A DNA stretch of 64,000 bases from Hydrolagus colliei (Eukaryota). Position numbers and translations under genes: made by a program. The DNA is taken from positions 117,738,001-117,802,000 of the forward strand of contig CM068742.1 in assembly GCA_035084275.1 (NCBI GenBank), written 5' to 3'. The first letter of the stretch is position 1. Each line of letters starts with the position of its first letter. The notes under the pieces are model-generated. The model did no database searches, was not told where the DNA came from, and saw only the letters and a list, made by a program, of their open reading frames with translations. This document shows positions 1 to 58,818 of this stretch, piece by piece.

Positions 1-2200
1 ATCGAATGAATAGGTAATTACACAGAGTCTTAAGCCTGACATTCCTGTGTTCACTGATTTTTGGGACAAAGTGGACGTGTGTAAACAAGGGGTGGAATGT
101 CAGGATAAATATTCTGTGTTTGGTCCTACACTCAGCATTTCCGCTCCTCAGAAATCACAGTTAAATCTTTGGGAAAAGGGGAGGGGTTACCCTGTTAAAA
201 CCTTGTTAAACTCCATCACAGAGGAGCTCTTGCAAGTTGCACAGCTAAGGAGGCATATCCAAAAGAAGGGGACAACTCACAAGTCAAGCATAGTGCTGTA
301 TTGTACTTTATTTAGGAATGGGTGTCAGAACATGCACCTAAGCCACCACCAGTAGCAGAATAGCTACTGGCAGGAAGAGGTGCAAGGAGCTTCATTGCTC
401 ATTTCTACCAGTGAACTCTGCACCTGGGCACTATTTTCACATAGTGCCTACAAATTAAGTCACAGAACTATGGCCATGTGCAATGGGTGAACTAACACAT
501 ATGATAATTATGTTATTGTTTGACAAATGCAGTCAACTCGGTCGGTTGATAGCTAAAGATTGGGCCTGGGTTTTACACTCCCACCCCCCACATCTCTATC
601 ACAATACTGTAGAAACAGCCAGACTTTGCACTTCCTGCTGAAAGTGTCACTTTGCAGGATACCGTCTTGACTTTAAGCAGGCTGGTTAGTCTCATGATGG
701 CATGGGCTGGCGTCAGGCCCACTCAGTGAGGCAGATATGGTTGGAGGAGTTCTCACACCAGCATTCAGTTTATTTATCAACTGGCTCACTTCACACAAAA
801 TTAGTAGACGTCGCTGTTCCAATGCAACCATTGTGTTTGGCCACAAGTTGTTATTTAGTTTCTCGCACAAAATACACAGTCGATCCACTTTACAATATAT
901 TCCGTGAAGCACTTTGAGAAGTCTTAATGGCGTGATAAGGTGCAATATCAAATGCAGGGATTACTATTATCAGAAATTCTCATAACATGAAAGGCACTAT
1001 ACAAATGTCATTTTGTTAATGTTGTTGTTGTTGTTGTGATAAATAGACCATTGCTACATTTTACAGTACAACCTGTATATCCCTTAATATATCCTCATAG
1101 TGTGAAAGGCATTATGTCATATGCAGGGATTATTATAACAGTTCTCTTCTCTGGCAGACATTGCACTGGGTTCTACTTTTAGTTTGAAGAGAGAAAGAGG
1201 TAAGTTATCAGTATACATGTGCAGATGGACAACGGGTATTGCTTTGCACACTGTCTACTGATCTGACACTTCAACGTTGTAGGGAATGTGCTATTTTAAG
1301 CATGTGAACAATGACTGATTCACAGGCACTTTCTTGCAGTGTGATGCAATTGGTTGATCCATATGGTACCGACCATCAATATTTCTCTTTTTCAAGGTGA
1401 ATTCCAATTGCTACCTCCTGAAACAAATCACTATTTCCTTCTGAGCTGCTTCAGGTCCCTTCAGGTTGAAGGGATGTAGGGGATCTGGTTGTCTTTTGTG
1501 CTCTTCTGTTGGCACCAAATTTCCCTGTGAACATTACAGAAATGACATTTGAGATAAAGTATTTGGGCCTATTGTAAATTCCTATCTACAGTTCGTTAAC
1601 TCTAATTGAAAGTTTGCTTCAATTTTCAATTTCACAAAGGAACAGACATTTGGGGAAGAGTTGGAAAGTGAGATCATGCAAAAAATGGGAGATTTAGAAA
1701 GATGAGTAACATTTATTACCTTGTTGGGTAACATATTGTGTGTATCTATCTAGCTTTCAGCATGTATTATTTATAACTTCAAGTTTCCTTGATGTACATA
1801 TCTTTCCTACGGTCCAGCTGTGTTACTGTTCTTCTTCAAATTATGCAAGGTACTCCACATTGATTGGCTTTGTATTCTACCACACGTTGTGGTGGGAATG
1901 AAGGACCTCACAGATGAAACAGTATCAAGACAGAACGTTATTATTGTGGCAACTGGGATTTCCAGGCGCTTCTCCAAAAACATAGGTTTACGATTCGGTA
2001 TTTAACCATTTGCCTTAGAATTCATCACTGCACAGTATATGCTCAATCAGTTGCTTGCACAAGTTGAACTAGTCATTATTGCAGGCAGGTCACTACTGCC
2101 TGCTAAGCTTTCACTTCAACATAGATTTATGTCAGGAGTGAAAATAAAGGCTCAATCATCATATTCACCCACCCTCTCTCTTCCCCGGCCCCTCCTCACA

Positions 2201-2275
2201 CAAACAAACAAACAAAACTTACATTTATATAGCGCCTTTCACGTCGAGAGGACATCCCAAGGCGCTGTACAGTCA
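2201..2275 (-). mobile_element. L2 LINE 3' terminus with (TTTG)n tail
   Basis: Minus strand reads gcgccttgggatgtcctctcgacgtgaaaggcgctatataaatgtaagttttgtttgtttg, nearly identical to the 3' end of the young L2 at 10497-11264. Confidence 0.9.
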
Positions 2276-2329
2276 GGTAGGACAAGAGCAGGGTGGGAAG
2301 GCTCAGGGCAGGATAAAGAATAGTAGGAA

Positions 2330-2400
2330 AAGTAACTGTATTAGTGGGCGAAACGCGGCAGCCAAATTGCGCACAGCAGTGTCCTACAATCAGTCACGGA
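2330..2400 (-). mobile_element. DeuSINE-type core fragment, copy 1
   Basis: gtgggcgaaacgcggcagccaaattgcgcacagcagtgtcc is the reverse complement of the SINE core seen in full copies at 16346 and 44361. Confidence 0.85.
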
Positions 2401-2476
2401 AGTAGGACTAGGGGCAAAAGGGGGTAAAGAAGCAAAAGGGGAGGGGTCGAGGCAGGGGGAAGAAAGGCAGGAAAGT

Positions 2477-2550
2477 CGACTGTATATTTGTGGGCGAAAC
2501 GCGGCAGCCAAATTGCGCACAGCAGTGTCCCCACAAACAATCGCGAAAAT
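2477..2550 (-). mobile_element. DeuSINE-type core fragment, copy 2
   Basis: Same 41-nt core as copy 1, including the shared gccaaattgc variant. Confidence 0.85.
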
Positions 2551-2870
2551 GGGGCCAGGGGAGAAAGGGGGAAAAGAGGGTAAGGGGGGAGAGGGAGGGA
2601 AAGGTGGGATGGGATAGGGTTAGGGAGGAAGAGGGGGGAGAAAGGGGGGCAAGGAAGAGAGGGAGGGAAAGATGGGTGGGGGCAAGATCAGGAAGAGGGA
2701 AAAGGGAGGGAAGGGGAAAAGGGAGGAGAGAAAGTGGGGAAAGGGAGTGAGGGAAGAAGAAGATGGGGGCAAGGGTGGGGGGAATCAAACAACAATAATA
2801 AACAACAAAAGCAACAATATTAACAAAAACAGCAACGAACAATAACCAACAATCGTCCAACAATCGTCCA
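2551..2870. repeat. Low-complexity tracts (G/A polypurine, then AAC-rich)
   Basis: Almost only G/A from 2555-2785, then an aac/aat-rich tract ending in a duplicated caacaatcgtc. Confidence 0.9.
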
Positions 2871-3053
2871 GAAACCACTCCCTGTCCTCGCCGCCCGCCC
2901 GGACGATCCCTGAGATGGCGGGAAAAAAAGGGCGCGGAAAAAAGGGCCCAGTGTGGTGTCAGGCCCCAAAACCGACCGGCTCCTCAGTCGATGAACCCGG
3001 GGACTCGGTGATGGCCCTGGCCCCTCGGACATGGTGTGTCTGGCCAGCTCGCA

Positions 3054-3074
3054 CAGCAGCAGCAGCAGCAGCAG
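3054..3074 (+). repeat. (CAG)7 microsatellite
   Basis: Seven perfect CAG units. Confidence 0.95.
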
Positions 3075-3126
3075 CCCGATCGCCGTCTGGATCTCCCGCG
3101 ACGAGATGATCCGTCGCTTGCAGCAC

Positions 3127-3264
3127 CTGGGCGCTCTCCCCCTCGCGGAAGACGTGCGCCACCCGCTGCCCGAGGAAAGTGCCGAGGTCGCGGCCTTCCC
3201 AGGTCCTGTCGAGGGGCCGCTCTTCGCACAGCCGGAGGAAGCGCCGACAGCGAATGGCCGCCAT
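3127..3264 (-). pseudogene. UQCC2: UQCC2 (complex III assembly factor 2) first coding exon; captured/decayed copy or divergent true exon 1
   Basis: ATG at 3264 gives [46 protein letters not shown], colinear with recalled human [46 protein letters not shown] (31/46 identical). Similarity ends after codon 46 at CAG|GT. Homology is strong; pseudogene status is uncertain. Confidence 0.75.
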
Positions 3265-3338
3265 TCCCTCCGCGATACTCCCCGTCATCCAAAAAGATGG
3301 CATTCGTTGGCCGACCGCCCATAGAGGAAGAACCTCTA

Positions 3339-3709
3339 TGAATAGGTGTTAACCGTGCTATTAAAACGACTGTTGCGAGGTGGAGAGAGTGCAGCAATGG
3401 CAGCGATGGAAGCCGCTCCAGCTGGTGGGCTGAGCGGTGCACAGCGTGAAAGCTCTGTCCGCGATCGTTCCAGCCCGAAGATCTCTAGTCTCGGGAGCGG
3501 GTGGTCCGCGTGAAAAACATCACCATACATCCAATATATCACCACCAGACAAAACACTAGATTAAATAGATGATATAAAATGATATAAAATGATATAAAT
3601 GATATAAAATATCATCTATCGCCAGGCGAGGTGGAGAGAGTGCAGGATAGCACCTGCACTCTCTCCACCTCGCAACAGTCGTTTTAATAGCACGGTTGAC
3701 ACCTATTCA
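3339..3709. mobile_element. Fold-back/MITE-like module with 56-bp inverted repeats
   Basis: 3339-3394 is the reverse complement of 3654-3709 with one mismatch; internal 21-bp hairpin and TGATATAAAA x4. Confidence 0.7.
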
Positions 3710-4479
3710 CTTTCCACATAAATCACCTATACATCTTTCCTAGTCCTGGATAACCTTTTCTAAGGGAGGTGAAAAACAGAGGCGAGGAAAAACAAACATG
3801 GCCAACAAAGGGGAATAAAAGATTTTCCTGCATTTCCTAGGTTTAGAAATGTTCAGCCCTCATGCAATAGTCATTTGTCTTTTGCTGGCAAAAAAAATTA
3901 ATCAATATAATTTGGTGAAAGGAGGTATATTTTATAATATTTGTAAATCTAGTAAATGTAAAAGTCAAGGCTCCAGTGAGCAATATTTTGAGGTTAAGAC
4001 AGTTCATCAAGTTGGCTCCAGTGTGGCTGCACAGTTCAGTTTTGAATCAAAACCAATAGTTTTGTGGTTTTATTTGATCACCACAGCTGGTAGCTCATAT
4101 TCCCCTCCTTCACCCCCCCACTCCCATCCGCCATTATCTATAAAATTGCCTACTATTAAAACACTACTATTTCAATGTTATATTTAATGATACTCTGCAT
4201 CAATAGTGATTGCTTGGTTATTGTCAGCAATGGATTTGTTTATGGAATCATGTCCATGAGAACTGGGTGCAAGTTGCCAGAACTCAATTTACTCCAACAA
4301 CTTTAAAACACAGGAGATAGTCATTCTGTTTATTTGGATATAGTTTATATTCAGGGCTATAGACCTGGTTCTTGCCATTGTATCAAATGCTAATACATTA
4401 ATATACAGTACTAACATACGTGATTGTTGAATTTGTATGAATTTGAAAGCCACTTGAATATGTCACGCTTGTTGTTGTT

Positions 4480-10496: not shown

Positions 10497-11264
10497 AACA
10501 ACAACAACAACAACAACAATTTACATTTATATAGCGCCTTTCACGTCGGGAGGACGTCCCAAGGCGCTAAACAAGAGGCGTGTGACCCGAGCTGGGAGGG
10601 GAGTGTTTGGGAAGGGGTGAAACACGAAGGGGAGGTAAAAGAGTTCGGGGTGAAACAAAAGGCACGATCGAAGAGGAAAGTCTTCAAATCGGCCTTGAAA
10701 GAGGAAAGGGAAGAGGCGAAATGGAGGGATTGAGGGATGGCATTCCATAGGGTGGGAGCGGAGAAACTGAAGGCCCGGCCTCCGATGGTGTGGCGGTTCG
10801 GGCGGGGGGCTTGGAGCAGGCCAAGTCCTGTTGAACGGAGGGCCCGGGTGGGCGTGTAGGGGGAGAGTAGATCGGTTAGGTAGGATGGGGCAAGGCCATG
10901 TAAGGCCTTGTAGGTGAGGACGAGGATCTTAAATTCGATCCTCTGGAGGATGGGGAGCCAGTGGAGACGGGCGAGGGTGGGGGTTATGTGATCACGGAGG
11001 TGGGTGCGGGATAGTACACGGGCTGCAGAGTTTTGGATGGCCTGCAGCCTATGAATGGAGGAACTGGGGAGGCCGACTAGGAGAGAGTTTCCGTAGTCCA
11101 GCCGTGAGGTGATGTATGCGTGCATGAGTGTTTCGGCAGCGCGGGGGGTAATATAGTTGCGGAGCCTGGCAATGTTGCGCAGATGGAAATAGGCTGTGCC
11201 GGTCAAGGCGCGGATGTGGGGGAGGAAGGAAAGTTTTTGATCGAACATGATGCCGAGGTTCCTG
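10497..11264 (-). mobile_element. Young 5'-truncated L2 LINE (ORF2 C-terminal region, open frame)
   Basis: 235-aa ORF with L2 motifs YFHLRNIARLR, SRLDYGNSLL, QNSAARVL, LHWLP, GGRAFS; (TTG)n tail; CpGs retained. Confidence 0.95.
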
Positions 11265-11399
11265 ATTTGCCAAAATTTAATTTGAAATGAAAGTTCTTTT
11301 CACTCACTGTGTTGACGCATCACTTCACATTTTGATTATATGATACCTAAATGGACTGTTTTTTGAATGCAGCATCTCATCCACTGAGATTAGGAAAAT

Positions 11400-16345: not shown

Positions 16346-16674
16346 GGAGTCCTGTAGCTCAGTGGTTACAGCGCTCGCCTTACAAGCGTGAGACCCGTGT
16401 TCGAATCCAGGCAGGTCAGGACAAAACCTTGGGTCAGTTTCCTTACTCCACAAGCCTAATGATAATCCCTCCAAAAAAAAAGCACAATAATAAAATGGGT
16501 TATTTCAATCCACGACTGTTTGTGGGACACTGCTGTCCGCAATTGGCTGCCGCGTTTCGCTCACAAGTATACAGTCAATTCACTTCACAGTATTTTCTGT
16601 GAAGCGCTTTGAGACTTCTAGAAGACTTGAAAAGCCCTATATCAAATGCAAGGATTATTATTATTATTATTATT
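16346..16674 (+). mobile_element. Young full-length tRNA-derived SINE with Deu-type core and L2-like (ATT)n tail
   Basis: A box tagctcagtgg, B box gttcgaatcc, core gtttgtgggacactgctg, tail atatcaaatgcaaggattattatt; possible attac duplication. Confidence 0.93.
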
Positions 16675-32688: not shown

Positions 32689-33910
32689 ACAACAACAACA
32701 AGAACAACAAAATTACACTTGTATATTGCCTTTCGTGTCAGGAGGACATCCCAGGGTGCTGGACAGTCATTGTTTCAGACCTGGGCTGGGGTCGGGGATG
32801 AGGAGGGTGGAGGGAAAAGTGGGGATTTGGGGTGACCAATGGGACCATTGAAGAGGCGGAACTTGAAGAAAGATAGGGATGGGGTCGAGGCAGAGGTATA
32901 GCAGGATGGAGTTCCCGAAGTTGTGGGCAGAGTGGCTGAAGACTCACCCACCAATGGTGGAGCGGGAGGGTCAGGGGACATGGAGCAGACCAGAGCTTGC
33001 TGAGGGGAGAGGCAAGCAGGTTGGTAGGGGCTAGGAGGTCGCAGAGGTAGGGTGGGGTGAGGCCATGGTGGGCTTTGAATGTGAGGACCAGGATCTTTAA
33101 TTGAATCCTCTGTATAATGGGGAGCCAATGGAGTCAGGCGAGAATGGGGGAGATGGGATCACAGAGCTTGGAGCAGTAGAGGATATGGGCTGCAGTGTTC
33201 TGGATTATCTGCAGCCAATGGAGGGAGGAATTGGGAAAGTTGACAAGCAGGGTATTGGCGTAGTCAAATCAAGATGTGATGAAGACATGAATGAGGGTTT
33301 CAGTAGCCTGAGGGGTGAGGTAGTGGCGGAGTTGGGCAATATTTCAGAGGTGAGGGAAGGCAGAGTGGGTCATGGCTTAGCTGTGGGGCAGGAAAGACAG
33401 TTGAGGATCGAACAAGGCACCTAGGTTACTGACTGGCTTGGTGAGGTTGAGTATGCAACCATGGAGGTTGATTTTGTGGATTCTGCTGCATGAAGGTGCT
33501 GGCATGAGCCAATCAGGAGGGCCTCGGCCTTGTTGACATTGAACTGTAGAAAGTTAGTTCTCATTCTGGACTCGATGTCCGATAGGCAATCTGTCAGAAA
33601 AGCAGTGATCTTGGAGTCGAGGGTAGAGGCAGAAAGATAGACAAAACACAAAATACTACAGATGAGGCATTATTCTAGTTAAATTATTTTGTGCATCTAC
33701 AAGATGGAATGTTTTGTAATGAGTTGGGTGTCATCTGCATACATGTGGAAGTTGACCCCATGTCAGCGGATGATGTCACCAAGTGGGAGCTTGTAGTTGT
33801 TGAAAATTAGGGGGCCAAGGACAGAGCCCTGGATTATGCCGCAGATGACATTGTGGGGGCTGGAAGAGAAGCTGTTGGTGGCGACAAAGTGGAGATGGTT
33901 CAGAAAGTCA
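32689..33910 (-). mobile_element. Degenerate L2 LINE including the RT YADD region, with an 80-bp insertion at 33641-33720
   Basis: Minus strand encodes QGSVLGPLIF, FHMYADDTQL, FLQFNVNKAEALLIGS, LQIIQNTAA; (TTG)n tail near 32689. Confidence 0.92.
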
Positions 33911-36346
33911 TACACGACGAGGGCATTTCCATGAAGATTGAGCTGGGTGATGGCACAGAATTAGATGTGAAATTTGTTTCTCAGTAGGCTGGTGCAGTCT
34001 AACTCAACCAGCAAGTTAATACAATAGAAAATTACATTTGTGAAGCTTCTTTCATTTTGGGAAGTTGTAATGGCGGTTCAAAGTGCAACATTTGGAAACT
34101 GGTAACCACTGGACTAATTGGTGATCACAGTATTCACTTTGCTTTCTTGGCTATTTCTTGGCTGGGAAAAGACAGCAACAACAACAAAATTAGACCTGTA
34201 TAGTGCCTTTCAAGTCAGGAGGACGTCCCAATGCAATGGACCTAAAGAAACCAACAAAAGTTCCAAAAGCAAAACACGAGTCACAAAGAGGCTTTGCTGG
34301 CCTTCAGGATCCTGAATTTTTGTTTTGCATTTTTTTTCTAAATGCAAATTTGGGATCTGATCTCACAATTTCAGGTACAGACTGGATATTGCTGGCATTG
34401 CAACTATTTGCAATTTGCCAATGCTGCACTTTCAACCTCAATGTCATTTGCTCTTCTTCACAAGGTTGGTCTCGGCTAAAACTCTTATCAGATGTCTGTA
34501 ATGTCATTCCACTAAAAAATCTTGATTTTCTCAATTGTCCACGTTCCTGTTTCTGTGCTTACCTTTGATTCCAATGAGCTTAAGGACTTTGCAAAGGTTA
34601 AGCTTTATTGTAAAGCTGAAATATTTAGACACCAGAATGATGACTACAGTGCATTATATCTAAGTTTAAAGTTACAGTTTATGCATGTGACTGCCAGACT
34701 GTTCTTTGTAATACTGTATACTGAAGTGACATGATTGATAAGATCAATGTTTTAAGTATTTAAGAGCTCTGGGATTTCTAGAATTATCTCCCACTAACCC
34801 TATGTCTTGCCCCACCCCATCTGTCTTCAAATCGTACCATAAAACCTCTTCCATCCATCCTATAATGGTCACGTCCCCCTTCTTCTCTCCCCTTCACTCT
34901 CCTCCTCTGCTCGGTGAATTATCCTGTCTTTGTAAAGTGCTCCAAGATGTTATCCTACATGAAGTGCAAGAGATAAATGCAAGTTGTTGTTGACAAAATT
35001 CTTGTACAACATTCTCAAGAAACCTTTTTTTCTTTCAAGTGTCCGTATACCATTCTGATATTGTATTTGTTCAGTATCCCACCCAGGTTATCTGTGATGT
35101 AAAGATCACTGTTAAATTAAAGCAAAATTTGTACCATTAAGCTGATCTATAGTACATTTTATAAGAGGCCCCAAGTCACCACCTAAATTCAAGGGTCAGT
35201 CTAAAATTATATTACCTTTGAAGAATGTCTAGTCAGGAATCCTTAATGAAAACCTTCCTCAGAACAACCCAAATCTGCTAAAATGACCCATTTAAAATGA
35301 CTCATAAAACAGGCAAGCACATTGATGGCAATATCAGAATTAGGATATCCTGACAAACAACACAAGTGGCAGAAAAGAAAACATAAATCATAGATCATAA
35401 ATGAGTTTAATGCAACAGATGTAGCACTAACATCAAAAGCCCCTTTACATGGAACTTGTTATTTTCCCCATCGCACGGCTTACTTTATGACATGTTCACA
35501 TTTCATTTATTGCAAAAGGAGACATGTTCATTCAAATGCGGCTTTTTCTGCTAATACAGTGCCGTTGTTAATTGATTGATTGCTCCCCACAAGGTGTAAA
35601 ATGTCTAGACAAATGCTCCTACATGGTGATAGTAAACTAGAGGAGAGGTTGCAGCAGATTTTATTTGAAGATTTGGTTTGCGGTTGTCTTGCGTCAATTC
35701 AACCATAACATTTATCACTTCATATTTTACCACCAATCAAGTACATTTAATGGCAAATTTTCCACGCAAATTTTCAAGATAAATCATCTCTCTTTTTGTT
35801 TTTTCTAACTAGAAGCAAAAAATCAAAGATTGGAGGTGGGAGAGAAAAATGCTGAAACACACCATTGCAAATGTTCAGTGAATTCCAGCAGAGGTTTTTT
35901 AGGACACCAAAAAATATTTGATATTAGATGATGAAAACTGAAGTTCTCCATTCTCTAAGGTGGAAATTGTTTAGACAGATGAGACTGCAGAAGCCTCGTC
36001 CACTCTGAGACGTAGCAGGAGGTTGTTCAACACTACTTGACAGAAATACATGTCTGCTCTGAGTACAATGGATGAATACGTTGTGTGAAGTATACTTCGT
36101 ATCTTTTTGCCTTCAACCCTTCCTTTACCAACATTTATTTGGTGAGTTTTGTTTTCCTCCTTTAATTTTAATGAAGTCATATATTTTATTCATTGCCTTA
36201 TTTATTGATATATTGTTTCCTGTGAAATGCAACCTCTATACCTGCATCTCTGAATAATTGCTATGAGGTATCTGAGGAGACAATGAATTCTTGTTTAATG
36301 TACATATTCCAGAATTATTCCCAAGTACAGTAGTAGTCATAAAATA

Positions 36347-41189: not shown

Positions 41190-42740
41190 ACACAACAATA
41201 AAATTACATTTGTATAGTGCCCTTCATGTTGGGGGCGTATCCCTAGTAGCTGGTCAGTCAGTGTTTCGGACCCGAGCTGGGGTTGGGATCTGGGAGGGTG
41301 GAGGGAAAAGTGGGGAAGGGGGGTGACCGATGGCACGGTCAAAGAGGAGGGTCTTGAGGCAGGACTTGAAGGAGGCTAGGGAAGGGGGCATAGTGGAGGA
41401 ATTGTGGGGTGGAATTCTAAAGCATGGGGGCAGATTGGCTGAAGTTTCACCCCGTCGATGATGGAGTGGGTGGTTTGGGGAACATGTAGCAGGTTGGTGC
41501 TTGCTGAGCGGAGTGAGTGGACAGGTTAGTAGTGGGTTAGGAGGTCGCAGAGACAGGGTGAGGCAAGCCCATGGAGGGCTTTAAAGGTGAGGACCAGGAT
41601 CTTGAATTGAATCCTCTGAGTGATGGGAAGCCAGTGGAGTTGTGTTAGTGTAGGGTTGATAGGGTCACAGAGCTTGGTGCAAGAGAGGATACAGGCTGCA
41701 GAGTTCTGGATGATTTGCAGCCTATGGAGGGAGGAATTGAGCAATTATCTCACACCCCCACGCTGCCGAAACACTCATGCACGCGTACATCACCTCACGG
41801 CTGGACTACGGAAACTCTCTCCTCATCGGCCTCCCCAGTTCCTCCATTCACAGGCTGCAGGTCATCCAAAACTCTGCAGCCCGTGTACTATCCCGTACCC
41901 ATCTCCGTGACCACATAACCCCCACCCTCGCCCGTCTCCACTGGCTCCCCATCCTCCAGAGGATCGAGTTCAAGATCCTCGTCCTCACCTTCAAGGCCTT
42001 ACACGGCCTTGCCCCAACCTATTTATCCGATTTACTCAACCCCTATAAGCCCACCCGGACCCTCCGTTCAGCAGGACTTGGCTTGCTACAAGCCCCCAGC
42101 CCGAACCGCCCCACCATCGGAGGCCGGGCCTTCAGTTTCTCCGCTCCCACCCTATGGAATTCCATCCCCCAATCCCTCCACCTTGTTTCCTCCCTTTCCT
42201 CTTTCAAGGCCGGTTTGAAGACTTTCCTCTTCGACCGTGCCTTTTGTTCCCCCTGAACGTTTCGACCTCTCCTACGTGTTTCACCGCTTCCTGAACACTC
42301 CCCTCCCAGCTCGGGTCACACGCCTCCTGTGCAACGCCTTGGGACATCCTCCCGACGTGAAAGGCGCTTTATAAGTTTAAATTGTTGTTGTTGTTGTTGT
42401 TGAGGAGACTGACAAGCAGGGCATTGGCATAGTTGAGCCTGGACTTGATGAAGGCATGAATGAGAGTTTCAGCAGCCTAAGGGGGTAAGGTAGTGGCGGA
42501 GTCGGGCAATGTTGATGGAGTTGAGGGAAGATCATGGCATGGATGTGCGGGAGAAAGGAAAGTTGAGGATTGAACAAGACAGCTAGGTTCCTGACTGTCT
42601 TGGTGAGGTGGAGTGTGCAACCGTGGAGGTTGATGCTGCCAGTGCCTGAGGTGTGGATGCCCTGGCACGAGTCAATCAGGGTGGCCTTGGTCTTGCTGCC
42701 ATTCAACTATAGAAAGTCATCCAGGACTTGATATCCCTGT
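41190..42740 (-). mobile_element. Older L2 fragment (41190-41741 and ~42403-42740) split by a younger L2
   Basis: Minus-strand peptides KTKATLIDS...TVRNLAVLFNPQLSF and LHRLQIIQNSAACIL...LHWLP are contiguous once the insert is removed. Confidence 0.9.
41742..42402 (+). mobile_element. Young 5'-truncated L2
   Basis: 159-aa ORF nearly identical to the 10541-11248 ORF; (TTG)n tail; ttgag at both junctions. Confidence 0.95.
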
Positions 42741-50199: not shown

Positions 50200-50800
50200 G
50201 GCTGGCTCAGTCAATAGCACTCTCACCTCTGAGTCAGAAGATTGTGGAAGGAATCCCAATGGTGGGACATGAGCTCCTGGAGCTCATGTGGAATCCTGTA
50301 GCTCAGTGATTAGAGCACTTGTCTTGCAAGCGAGAGACCTGGGTTCAATTCCAGGCAGGGTGAAACCTTGTGCAAGTTTCCTTATTCCACACGCCTAATA
50401 ATAATCCCTCAAAAGAAAAACAATAATAAATTGGTTATTTTAATCCATGTCTGTTTGTGGGACACTTCTGTGCACAATTGGCTCCCACATTTCGCCCACA
50501 AATATACAGTCAATTCACTTTATAGTATATTCTGTAAAGCGCTTTGAAATGACTCTAGAAGACATGGAAAGTGAAATTCACAGTATAGGCTGAGATTCCA
50601 ATGCAGTGCTGATTGTCTTTTGAATGAGATGTTAAACCTGTTTAGGTGGATGTTGAAGATCCCTAGTGGCTATTTGAAAAGACAAAGGAGAATTTCCTGC
50701 ATTCTGGCCACCAACCCACTGGGTAAAATTGATCATTTACTTCATTGATATTAGTGGGTCATTGCTGTGCACAATTTGCCTATTGTGTTTCTCTACAAAA
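50200..50800 (+). mobile_element. Older DeuSINE with a young SINE nested at ~50288-50572
   Basis: Old head ggctggctcagtcaatagcactctcacctctgagtcagaag, then young head ggaatcctgtagctcagtg; old body resumes near 50580. Confidence 0.85.
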
Positions 50801-57641: not shown

Positions 57642-58818
57642 TAGGGTCTGGTGATATATCGATATATTGCTAAGACCCGATATAGTTTTCATATCGATAC
57701 GCCGATATAGGCATTTCAAAAATATCGATATATCGAAAAATCGATATATCGAGGTAAAAATTCGGAATGCGCGCACACTGAACTACAAGACCCAGAATGC
57801 TTATCTCTATACACAATGCACAGACCGAGGTGCAAAGCCACCATATTGTATTCATAGTCCTCGAATACAATATACAGGTATGCAAGGGGTGGGGGGAGGA
57901 GAGAAAGCTGTGGGGGGGGGGCGGTGAGGGGAAGAGAGATGGCTGGGGGGCGGGGGTGAGGGGGACAGAGACAGCTGGGGGTGGGTGTGAGGGGGAGAGA
58001 GACGGCTGGGTGGGGGAGAGAGATGGCTGAGGAGGTGTGGGGGAGAGAGAGATGGCTGGGGGGGTGGGGGGGAGAGAGAGATGGCTGGGGGGGTGGGGGG
58101 GAGAGAGAGATGGCTGGGGGGGTGGGGGGGAGAGAGAGACGGCTGGGGGGGTGGGGGTGAGAGAGAAAGAGACGGCTGGGGGGGTGGGGGGGAGAGAGAC
58201 GGCGGGGCGGGGGGAGGGAGAGAGCGACGGCTGTGGGGGGTGGCTGGGGAGAGGGACGGCGGTGGGGGTGTGGGTGGAGAAAGATGCCTGGGGGGGGTGG
58301 GGTGGGGGGAGAGAGAGACGGTGTGGTGGGGGGAGGGAGAAAGAGACGGCTGGGGGGGGGTGGGGGGGAGAGAGACGGCGGGGCAGGGTGAGGGAGAGAG
58401 AGATGGCTGGGGGGGGTGGGGGGGGAGAGGGACAGCGGGGGGGTGTGGGTGGAGAAAGACGGCTGGGGGTGCTGGGGTGGGGGGAGAAAGACGGCTGGGG
58501 GGGTTGGTGGGGGGAGAGACAGGGTGGATGTGATAATATACAGATAGATAGAGATGGGGGGGATGTGAGAGACACAGAGACACAGACAGAAAAACACAGA
58601 GATGGAGAGAGTGAGAGACACAGTGAGAGAAAGATATTTACTTCCTGAGGAGATAGGCCCCGAATGCGCGCGCACCCGGAATGCACGCGCACTCCGAATG
58701 CGTGTGCCCCTCGTGCATGCGCAGTACGAAAAACCCAAAAATATCGATATTTTGGTATATCTCGATATGAGCCCATCGATATATCTAAGTTGGAAAATTT
58801 CCATATCGACGGACCCTA
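57642..58818. mobile_element. hAT (Ac-type TAGGG termini) non-autonomous DNA transposon
   Basis: TIRs tagggtctggtgatat / atatcgacggacccta; 8-bp TSD gtgacttt / gtgactgt; many subterminal ATATCGAT motifs; splits a SINE tail. Confidence 0.9.
57885..58530 (+). repeat. G-rich minisatellite inside the hAT element
   Basis: Tandem degenerate ~29-nt units resembling ggggggagagagagatggctgggggggtg. Confidence 0.92.

Follow-up and report, generated by a model that had tools for sequence, protein, structure and literature searches.

Evidence for a young composite retroposon family with an L2-type tail and pieces of four host genes in Hydrolagus colliei

The element at 2202-3698 and its modules

The window, a stretch of 64,000 nucleotides from Hydrolagus colliei (GCA_035084275.1, contig CM068742.1, positions 117,738,001 to 117,802,000 of the forward strand), contains a composite element at 2202-3698. 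Its modules were all found, co-oriented on the minus strand as an earlier note on this DNA had read them. An orthologous empty site is present in a relative, where one contig of run X10 bridges both flanks, aligning to 3699-3878 and 2021-2188 with 9 letters between them; across five flank contigs of this run the host flanks differ at 17 of 1,244 sites. The 9 letters would fit 2189-2197, implying a target site duplication (TSD) of 4 bp where the note had seen none, and the 4-mers 3699-3702 and 2198-2201 are identical. The empty-site contig and the implied TSD set the limits of the element at 2202-3698, with 3699-3709 being host flank. Runs X1 and X2 both contain a contig of the 5' junction (3649-4400). 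From the 5' to the 3' end of the element, the features are:

3699-3702: TSD on the 5' side, 4 bp, identical to 2198-2201 (run X10 empty-site contig)
3674-3698, minus strand: extra 5' nucleotides of this copy only, for which a distant site was likely the template (23/23 match)
3626-3673, minus strand: family 5' hairpin, 21-bp perfect arms and 6-nt loop, both orientations among copies
3490-3625, minus strand: AT-rich palindromic head ending GC-rich and exon-like, donor-locus searches negative
3446-3489, minus strand: PEBP-family exon A, source C44:1388262-1388307, beginning at the natural acceptor
3399-3445, minus strand: PEBP-family exon B, first part, source C44:1393225-1393341, 4,917-bp intron absent
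3335-3398, minus strand: private 64-nt insert, repeating in inverted form the 5' junction of this copy together with 11 nt of host flank
3271-3334, minus strand: PEBP-family exon B, second part, stopping at the natural donor
3127-3270, minus strand: degenerate UQCC2 exon 1 piece, 6-7 nt of 5' UTR and 46 codons, source C29:7649782-7649925
2986-3126, minus strand: histone H2B-variant C-terminal coding piece with an expanded Leu (CTG) run, closest intact gene C194:23628-23910
2866-2985, minus strand: remnants of RUNDC1 exon 1, in two pieces separated by an internal deletion common to L111 and L114
2540-2865, minus strand: GTT-rich tract and polypyrimidine tract, common to older stages
2313-2539, minus strand: two SINE-core copies (2539-2478 and 2392-2330) inside a tandem duplication of ~147 bp, 77% identical
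2202-2312, minus strand: L2-type 3' tail and (TTTG)n terminal repeat, aligning to the 3' ends of RT-encoding LINEs
2198-2201: TSD, 3' side, same 4-mer as 3699-3702 (empty-site contig)

The frame from the ATG at 3264 is a degenerate UQCC2 exon 1 (Pfam PF20180, E = 1.5e-5; 37/47 residues identical to Callorhinchus milii UQCC2), in agreement with the earlier note. The conserved Tyr6 and Trp16 are changed in this copy, and the gene state is ancestral, since Tyr6 is present in 120/120 orthologues. An intact UQCC2 gene was found on a separate contig (C29), with exon 2 ~3.2 kb beyond exon 1. Similarity between the element and this gene stops at 3125, which is the end of exon 1, so UQCC2 intron 1 was not captured. 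The segment formerly taken as intron-like, which includes the (CTG)7, matches instead the C-terminal coding sequence of histone H2B and then pieces of RUNDC1. Dispersal of a UQCC2 CpG island and intron 1, as first imagined, does not hold either: only 6-7 nt of 5' UTR and the 46 codons are carried. What had been called a short leader corresponds to two spliced exons (A and B) of a PEBP-family gene on C44, its donor being assigned to the PEBP family only; the matches to these exons led us to abandon degenerate H2B as an identity for the leader. The cargo comes from four genes rather than one.

The closest intact H2B donor, the variant gene on C194, is 81% identical. An older copy of the RUNDC1 piece is 80% identical to C. 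milii RUNDC1 (E = 6e-14), and the RUNDC1 pieces of the window copy align to it through L148, L111 and L114. Among the 56/56 candidates scored in G000, an intact RUNDC1 gene was not found, the matches covering only residues 1-115. The best protein matches of the captured pieces are from C. milii. A homologue search with the degenerate UQCC2 exon gave no match and a PDB search with the same exon only chance matches, and Pfam returned no family for five short pieces of the element. No RT frame occurs in the part translated, ARAGORN predicted no tRNA in the element, and Rfam gave no match at gathering score in 2000-4000; matches of the hairpin to miRNA families of Rfam were far below gathering scores and were rejected. 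The GTT-rich and polypyrimidine tracts are in place, and the two SINE-core copies lie 146 bp apart. CpG retention, reported before across the whole unit, was observed in 4/5 element segments (o/e 0.76-0.99, against 0.21-0.26 in the flanks) but not in the polypurine tract (0.21).

Some features are private to this copy. Positions 3701-3679, which take in 3 nt of the TSD along with part of the 25 extra 5' bases, match 23/23 a single other site (G000:C26:~2191960). The fold-back module seen earlier is real, but it joins two things: a 56-bp inverted repeat (3339-3394/3654-3709) of this copy only, and the 21-bp hairpin (arms 3626-3646/3653-3673) that forms the 5' end of the family. The 64-nt insert is missing from 28 other copies whose alignments reach or span the position (L029 is truncated before it), and as it contains 11 nt of flank, it arose at or after integration.

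A few neighbouring observations were made. Several divergent H2B variant genes, among them one whose N-terminus is Arg-rich, lie together at G000:C194:20000-55000 (L078-L080) and are possibly germline-specific. No RUNDC1 exon past residue 115 was found in G000, with an assembly gap or gene loss among the possible causes. In the window, a G-rich 29-bp VNTR of ~21 copies lies at 57886-58520, and the tRNA-like ARAGORN calls at 16348-16419 and 50293-50362, directly upstream of SINE-core matches, are probably SINE heads.

Copies, 5' hairpin and 3' tail

A 16-mer across the UQCC2|H2B joint has 241 exact matches in the genome, against 1 for the control, and a 176-bp query returned 319 candidates, 40 of which were scored, all at 96-100%. 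Altogether 79 copies were examined: 30 from the 176-bp query, 9 from a second search, and 40 taken in list order from the 16-mer matches. They repeat the module order at many loci as the note had predicted, with 77/79 reaching the same 3' end and with variable 5' truncation. The start lies in the first 14 nt for 43 copies; 9 have it in the hairpin or have the hairpin rearranged; and 8, 7 and 12 begin inside the head, PEBP and UQCC2 modules, respectively. Divergence from the majority has a median of 2.1% over a body of 679 columns; the rearranged L017 was excluded from substitution counts and from the tree. Flanks are unrelated in 5/7 copy pairs tested. A blind TSD scan was weakly above control, with matches of at least 7 nt in 8/68 copies and 12/600 controls under a loose window (11/79 copies were unscored). 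We are nearly certain that these copies form a young, non-autonomous, L2-tailed composite retroposon family of ~1.4 kb, with at least 241 copies and four captured genes. The hundreds of UQCC2-, H2B- and PEBP-like matches in this genome are copies of an element, not genes.

The exon similarity is all that speaks for a real UQCC2 first exon whose intron 1 received independent SINE and L2 insertions. This single-copy reading is refuted, since the intact gene, exon 2 included, is on C29 and the joint is found 241 times; Tyr6 and Trp16 are also changed in the window copy. Spread of the unit as DNA, by segmental duplication or as a MITE or Helitron acting through the hairpins, would fit the presence of 5' hairpins and the few copies with common flanks (the 3' side of L032 and L033; the C28 cluster). 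It is nevertheless very improbable, because most tested flanks are unrelated, copies are truncated at the 5' side, an intron has been lost, and a fixed 3' end is followed by a variable microsatellite tail without terminal inverted repeats.

The hairpin loop is oriented one way in 29/79 copies and reversed in 20/79, while 30/79 lack it or were unscored. On a tree of 48 copies the loop label needs 10 changes, at least 5 of them forced by supported branches, and it is more clustered than in shuffles. L007 and L011 have a common 19-nt 5' tag with opposite loops. It is likely that the loop was inverted repeatedly, either in DNA or during integration. For the head, a donor-locus search gave 67 matches, all ending in the element form of the joint, and a comparison with a phage collection gave none. 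L032 (C265) and L033 (C506) have 400 bp of 3' flank in common but different 5' ends, L033 carrying an extra inverted piece of the hairpin.

Over its final ~110 nt the element aligns with the 3' ends of 11/11 RT-encoding LINE copies examined, one with RVT_1 at E = 1e-35, in support of the L2-type 3' end with (TTTG)n proposed before. The element tail differs from the examined L2 tails at several positions, so these tails do not point to one exact partner LINE family. The core segment is also found in the common tRNA-headed SINE of this genome (30/31 nt). Fragments of the same LINE ORF2 family occur elsewhere in the window (10544-11266, 33026-33912, 41332-42721 and others), with 41-89% protein identity. 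These LINEs are probably of the L2 clade, judging from ORF2 features and from PMC5499810.

C. milii SINEs have a 3' tail in common with L2-2_CM (PMC5499810), insertions of the L2-clade ZfL2 show TSDs of ~5 bp and 5' extra nucleotides (PMC4245944), and L2/CR1 LINEs are thought to copy only RNAs with their own tail (PMC3747384). The tail, the short TSD and the 5' extra nucleotides make an L2 reverse transcriptase that recognises the tail the likely mobiliser. Of the earlier claim of a chimeric unit retrotransposed by L2, the single retrotransposed unit stands, and L2 as the mobiliser is an inference from tail identity. Transcription would be by Pol II, from the head or from upstream host promoters.

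Order of capture, joints and A>G changes

Older stages of the element survive. There are RUNDC1-only units (L139, L144, L148, L149), H2B+RUNDC1 units (L109 and the C28 cluster, the latter duplicated later with its flanks), and units of H2B with deleted RUNDC1 (L111, L114). All have the same GTT, polypyrimidine, core and tail back end where it is preserved, and additions are always at the 5' side, replacing part of the previous front. From these stages the order of capture would be RUNDC1, H2B, UQCC2, PEBP and then the head. In the C28 cluster (G000:C28:8.41-8.70 Mb; L082-L084, L088, L089, L096-L110) at least 14 H2B+RUNDC1 units are duplicated with their flanks; in some of these units the H2B-variant frame is still almost complete and might wrongly be annotated as a histone gene.

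The head meets PEBP-A at the natural acceptor of that exon. The natural donor of PEBP-B is joined to an AG in the UQCC2 5' UTR, the natural donor of UQCC2 to a CAG in H2B, and between H2B and RUNDC1 a cryptic GT of the former meets an AG of the latter. At UQCC2|H2B there is a single G beyond what clean splicing would leave, the ancestral exon ending in Gln in 119/120 orthologues; this joint also fits a switch at 2-4 nt of microhomology, and the H2B|RUNDC1 joint one at 1-3 nt. No element copy was found in the 60 kb of sequence surrounding UQCC2 or in the 100 kb surrounding the PEBP exons, and a search for a UQCC2-H2B intermediate with longer 5' UTR gave the gene and chance-level matches (9, against 8 in controls), so source loci for cis-splicing were not seen.

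That the PEBP/UQCC2 stage may be lineage-specific is no more than hinted at by run coverage. Runs X7 and X10 (97% cut-off) have no cover at 3149-3633 and runs X6 and X9 (85% cut-off) none at 3280-3663, though the tail and the RUNDC1/H2B parts are covered in all four. Run X8, labelled as another organism, has low-depth contigs across the UQCC2|H2B and PEBP|UQCC2 joints.

Compared with the PEBP and UQCC2 genes, the element shows a one-strand excess of A>G (25/72 sites, against 3/53 for T>C, p = 7e-5; G>A 1/80, C>T 3/95), a site being scored when G is read in at least 12% of copies. With H2B added, A>G reaches 34/100 and T>C 4/67. An A preceded by G is spared, being changed in 1/27 cases against 32/72 for the other neighbours (p = 7e-5), and avoidance of a 5' G is described in PMC5625713 as an ADAR preference common across animals. 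In the copy L171 the body contains 19 private A>G, and comparison with L184 gives 47 A>G against 5 T>C, with a weaker 5'-G avoidance (9/67 against 38/136). On the other hand, private A>G are absent from the body in 58/78 copies, so editing looks episodic. In the controls, 10 L2 copies have 3.0 A>G and 11.9 T>C per 1000, and 14 C28 copies 8.3% and 7.0%; neither set shows an excess of A>G. The later-stage L111, L114 and L117 have 15, 17 and 13 A>G against 4, 3 and 7 T>C, above the balance of L109 (5 and 5), so the excess builds along the lineage.

Each of these patterns has a competing explanation. The modules could have been joined by template switching of the reverse transcriptase or by DNA recombination at short microhomologies, as would suit the extra G, the microhomologies at two joints, the templated 5' insert from C26 in the window copy itself and the meeting of RUNDC1 with the GTT tract inside an exon. 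For the set of joints this is unlikely: three lie where a donor exon naturally begins or ends and the fourth has GT/AG, where random switching would rarely land. Such switching or recombination probably made the first capture (RUNDC1) and possibly one further capture; for the joints described here splicing is the likely maker, with host exons upstream being spliced successively onto older copies, so that the element would grow 5'-ward. The A>G excess, in turn, could come from RT error bias, transcription-coupled mutation asymmetry or GC-biased conversion, and in the case of H2B the reference is just the nearest intact gene, with 81% identity. Such causes appear improbable in view of the T>C that is not raised (3/53), the opposite tendency of the L2 copies, the 5'-G avoidance and the one copy with 47 clustered A>G. 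Since one-strand A>G, 5'-G depletion and clustering are all ADAR-like, the excess more likely represents ADAR A-to-I edits of element RNA that would have been written into DNA, judging from the substitutions themselves.

We consider it probable that the whole mechanism is that of a stack of host-gene pieces on a SINE core and L2-type tail, copied by L2, grown by splicing and carrying ADAR edits in its DNA. That this is an SVA-like, serially exon-trapping lineage outside primates, with a cumulative heritable ADAR record and a repeatedly flipping hairpin loop, is a bolder proposal that we favour with some reserve. If true, successive rounds carried edits into the germline and changed about a third of the captured-exon adenines, and if the A>G imprint is due to ADAR, the family would preserve a dated fossil record of how germline RNA edits passed into the genome via a non-viral retroelement.

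Comparison with known elements

SVA elements consist of hexamer repeat, Alu-like, VNTR and SINE-R domains. Our element has none of these, and no GC-rich VNTR, its modules being traced to other sources or to simple sequence; its tail is of the L2 type with (TTTG)n and its TSD of 4 bp, unlike the poly(A)/L1 tail and ~15-bp L1-type TSD of SVA. The likeness is with SVA_F1 (MAST2 exon 1) and chimpanzee pt_SVA_D6 (STK40 exon 1), in which, according to PMC6139936, the 5' part was replaced by a spliced GC-rich first exon and the subfamilies then amplified to 84 and 94 copies. All are composite non-autonomous non-LTR retroposons with a trapped exon, in our element likely also by splicing; here the captured ends coincide with the end of UQCC2 exon 1 (+1 nt), the end of PEBP-B and the start of PEBP-A. 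Unlike SVA_F1, the element has four donors nested in one family, surviving intermediates, a strong one-strand A>G and a chondrichthyan host. The mechanism resembles SVA_F1 exon trapping, and the element is not an SVA. The surviving intermediates make the steps in the assembly of an SVA-like element directly readable.

The L2-type 3' tail is also found in CmiSINE (SINE2-1_CM) and SacSINE1-CM, with LINE L2-2_CM, of C. milii, as described in PMC5499810. The element differs from them by an mRNA-derived body of 1.4 kb and by having no tRNA head or Pol III boxes; of the features of Pol III SINEs, the tail in common with a partner LINE is present and a tRNA, 5S or 7SL head is absent. With processed pseudogenes, which depend on L1 and its relaxed recognition (PMC3747384), it shares the intron loss of the PEBP piece. 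It differs from them in having no poly(A) or whole mRNA and in combining four donors with a LINE tail, and its host exons are mobile only through fusion to a tail of the stringent type. This is an exon-shuffling route for L2/CR1-dominated genomes, in which host exons acquire a LINE tail via retroposon fusion.

The platypus snoRTE is reportedly a host snoRNA fused to a non-L1 LINE tail and amplified. The element is similar in placing host RNA on a non-L1 LINE tail, the RNA being of protein-coding exons from four genes instead of a snoRNA. In the papers searched, neither a description of the family nor a case of ADAR edits fixed in copies of this kind was found, and the excerpt of PMC5974252 holds no account of either.

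In L034 (C19:~11609900) and L185 (C1:~104686400) a SINE fragment is fused at an identical point to a 5'-truncated copy of the element, the outer flanks being unrelated; the two represent a further chimera that was itself re-mobilised.
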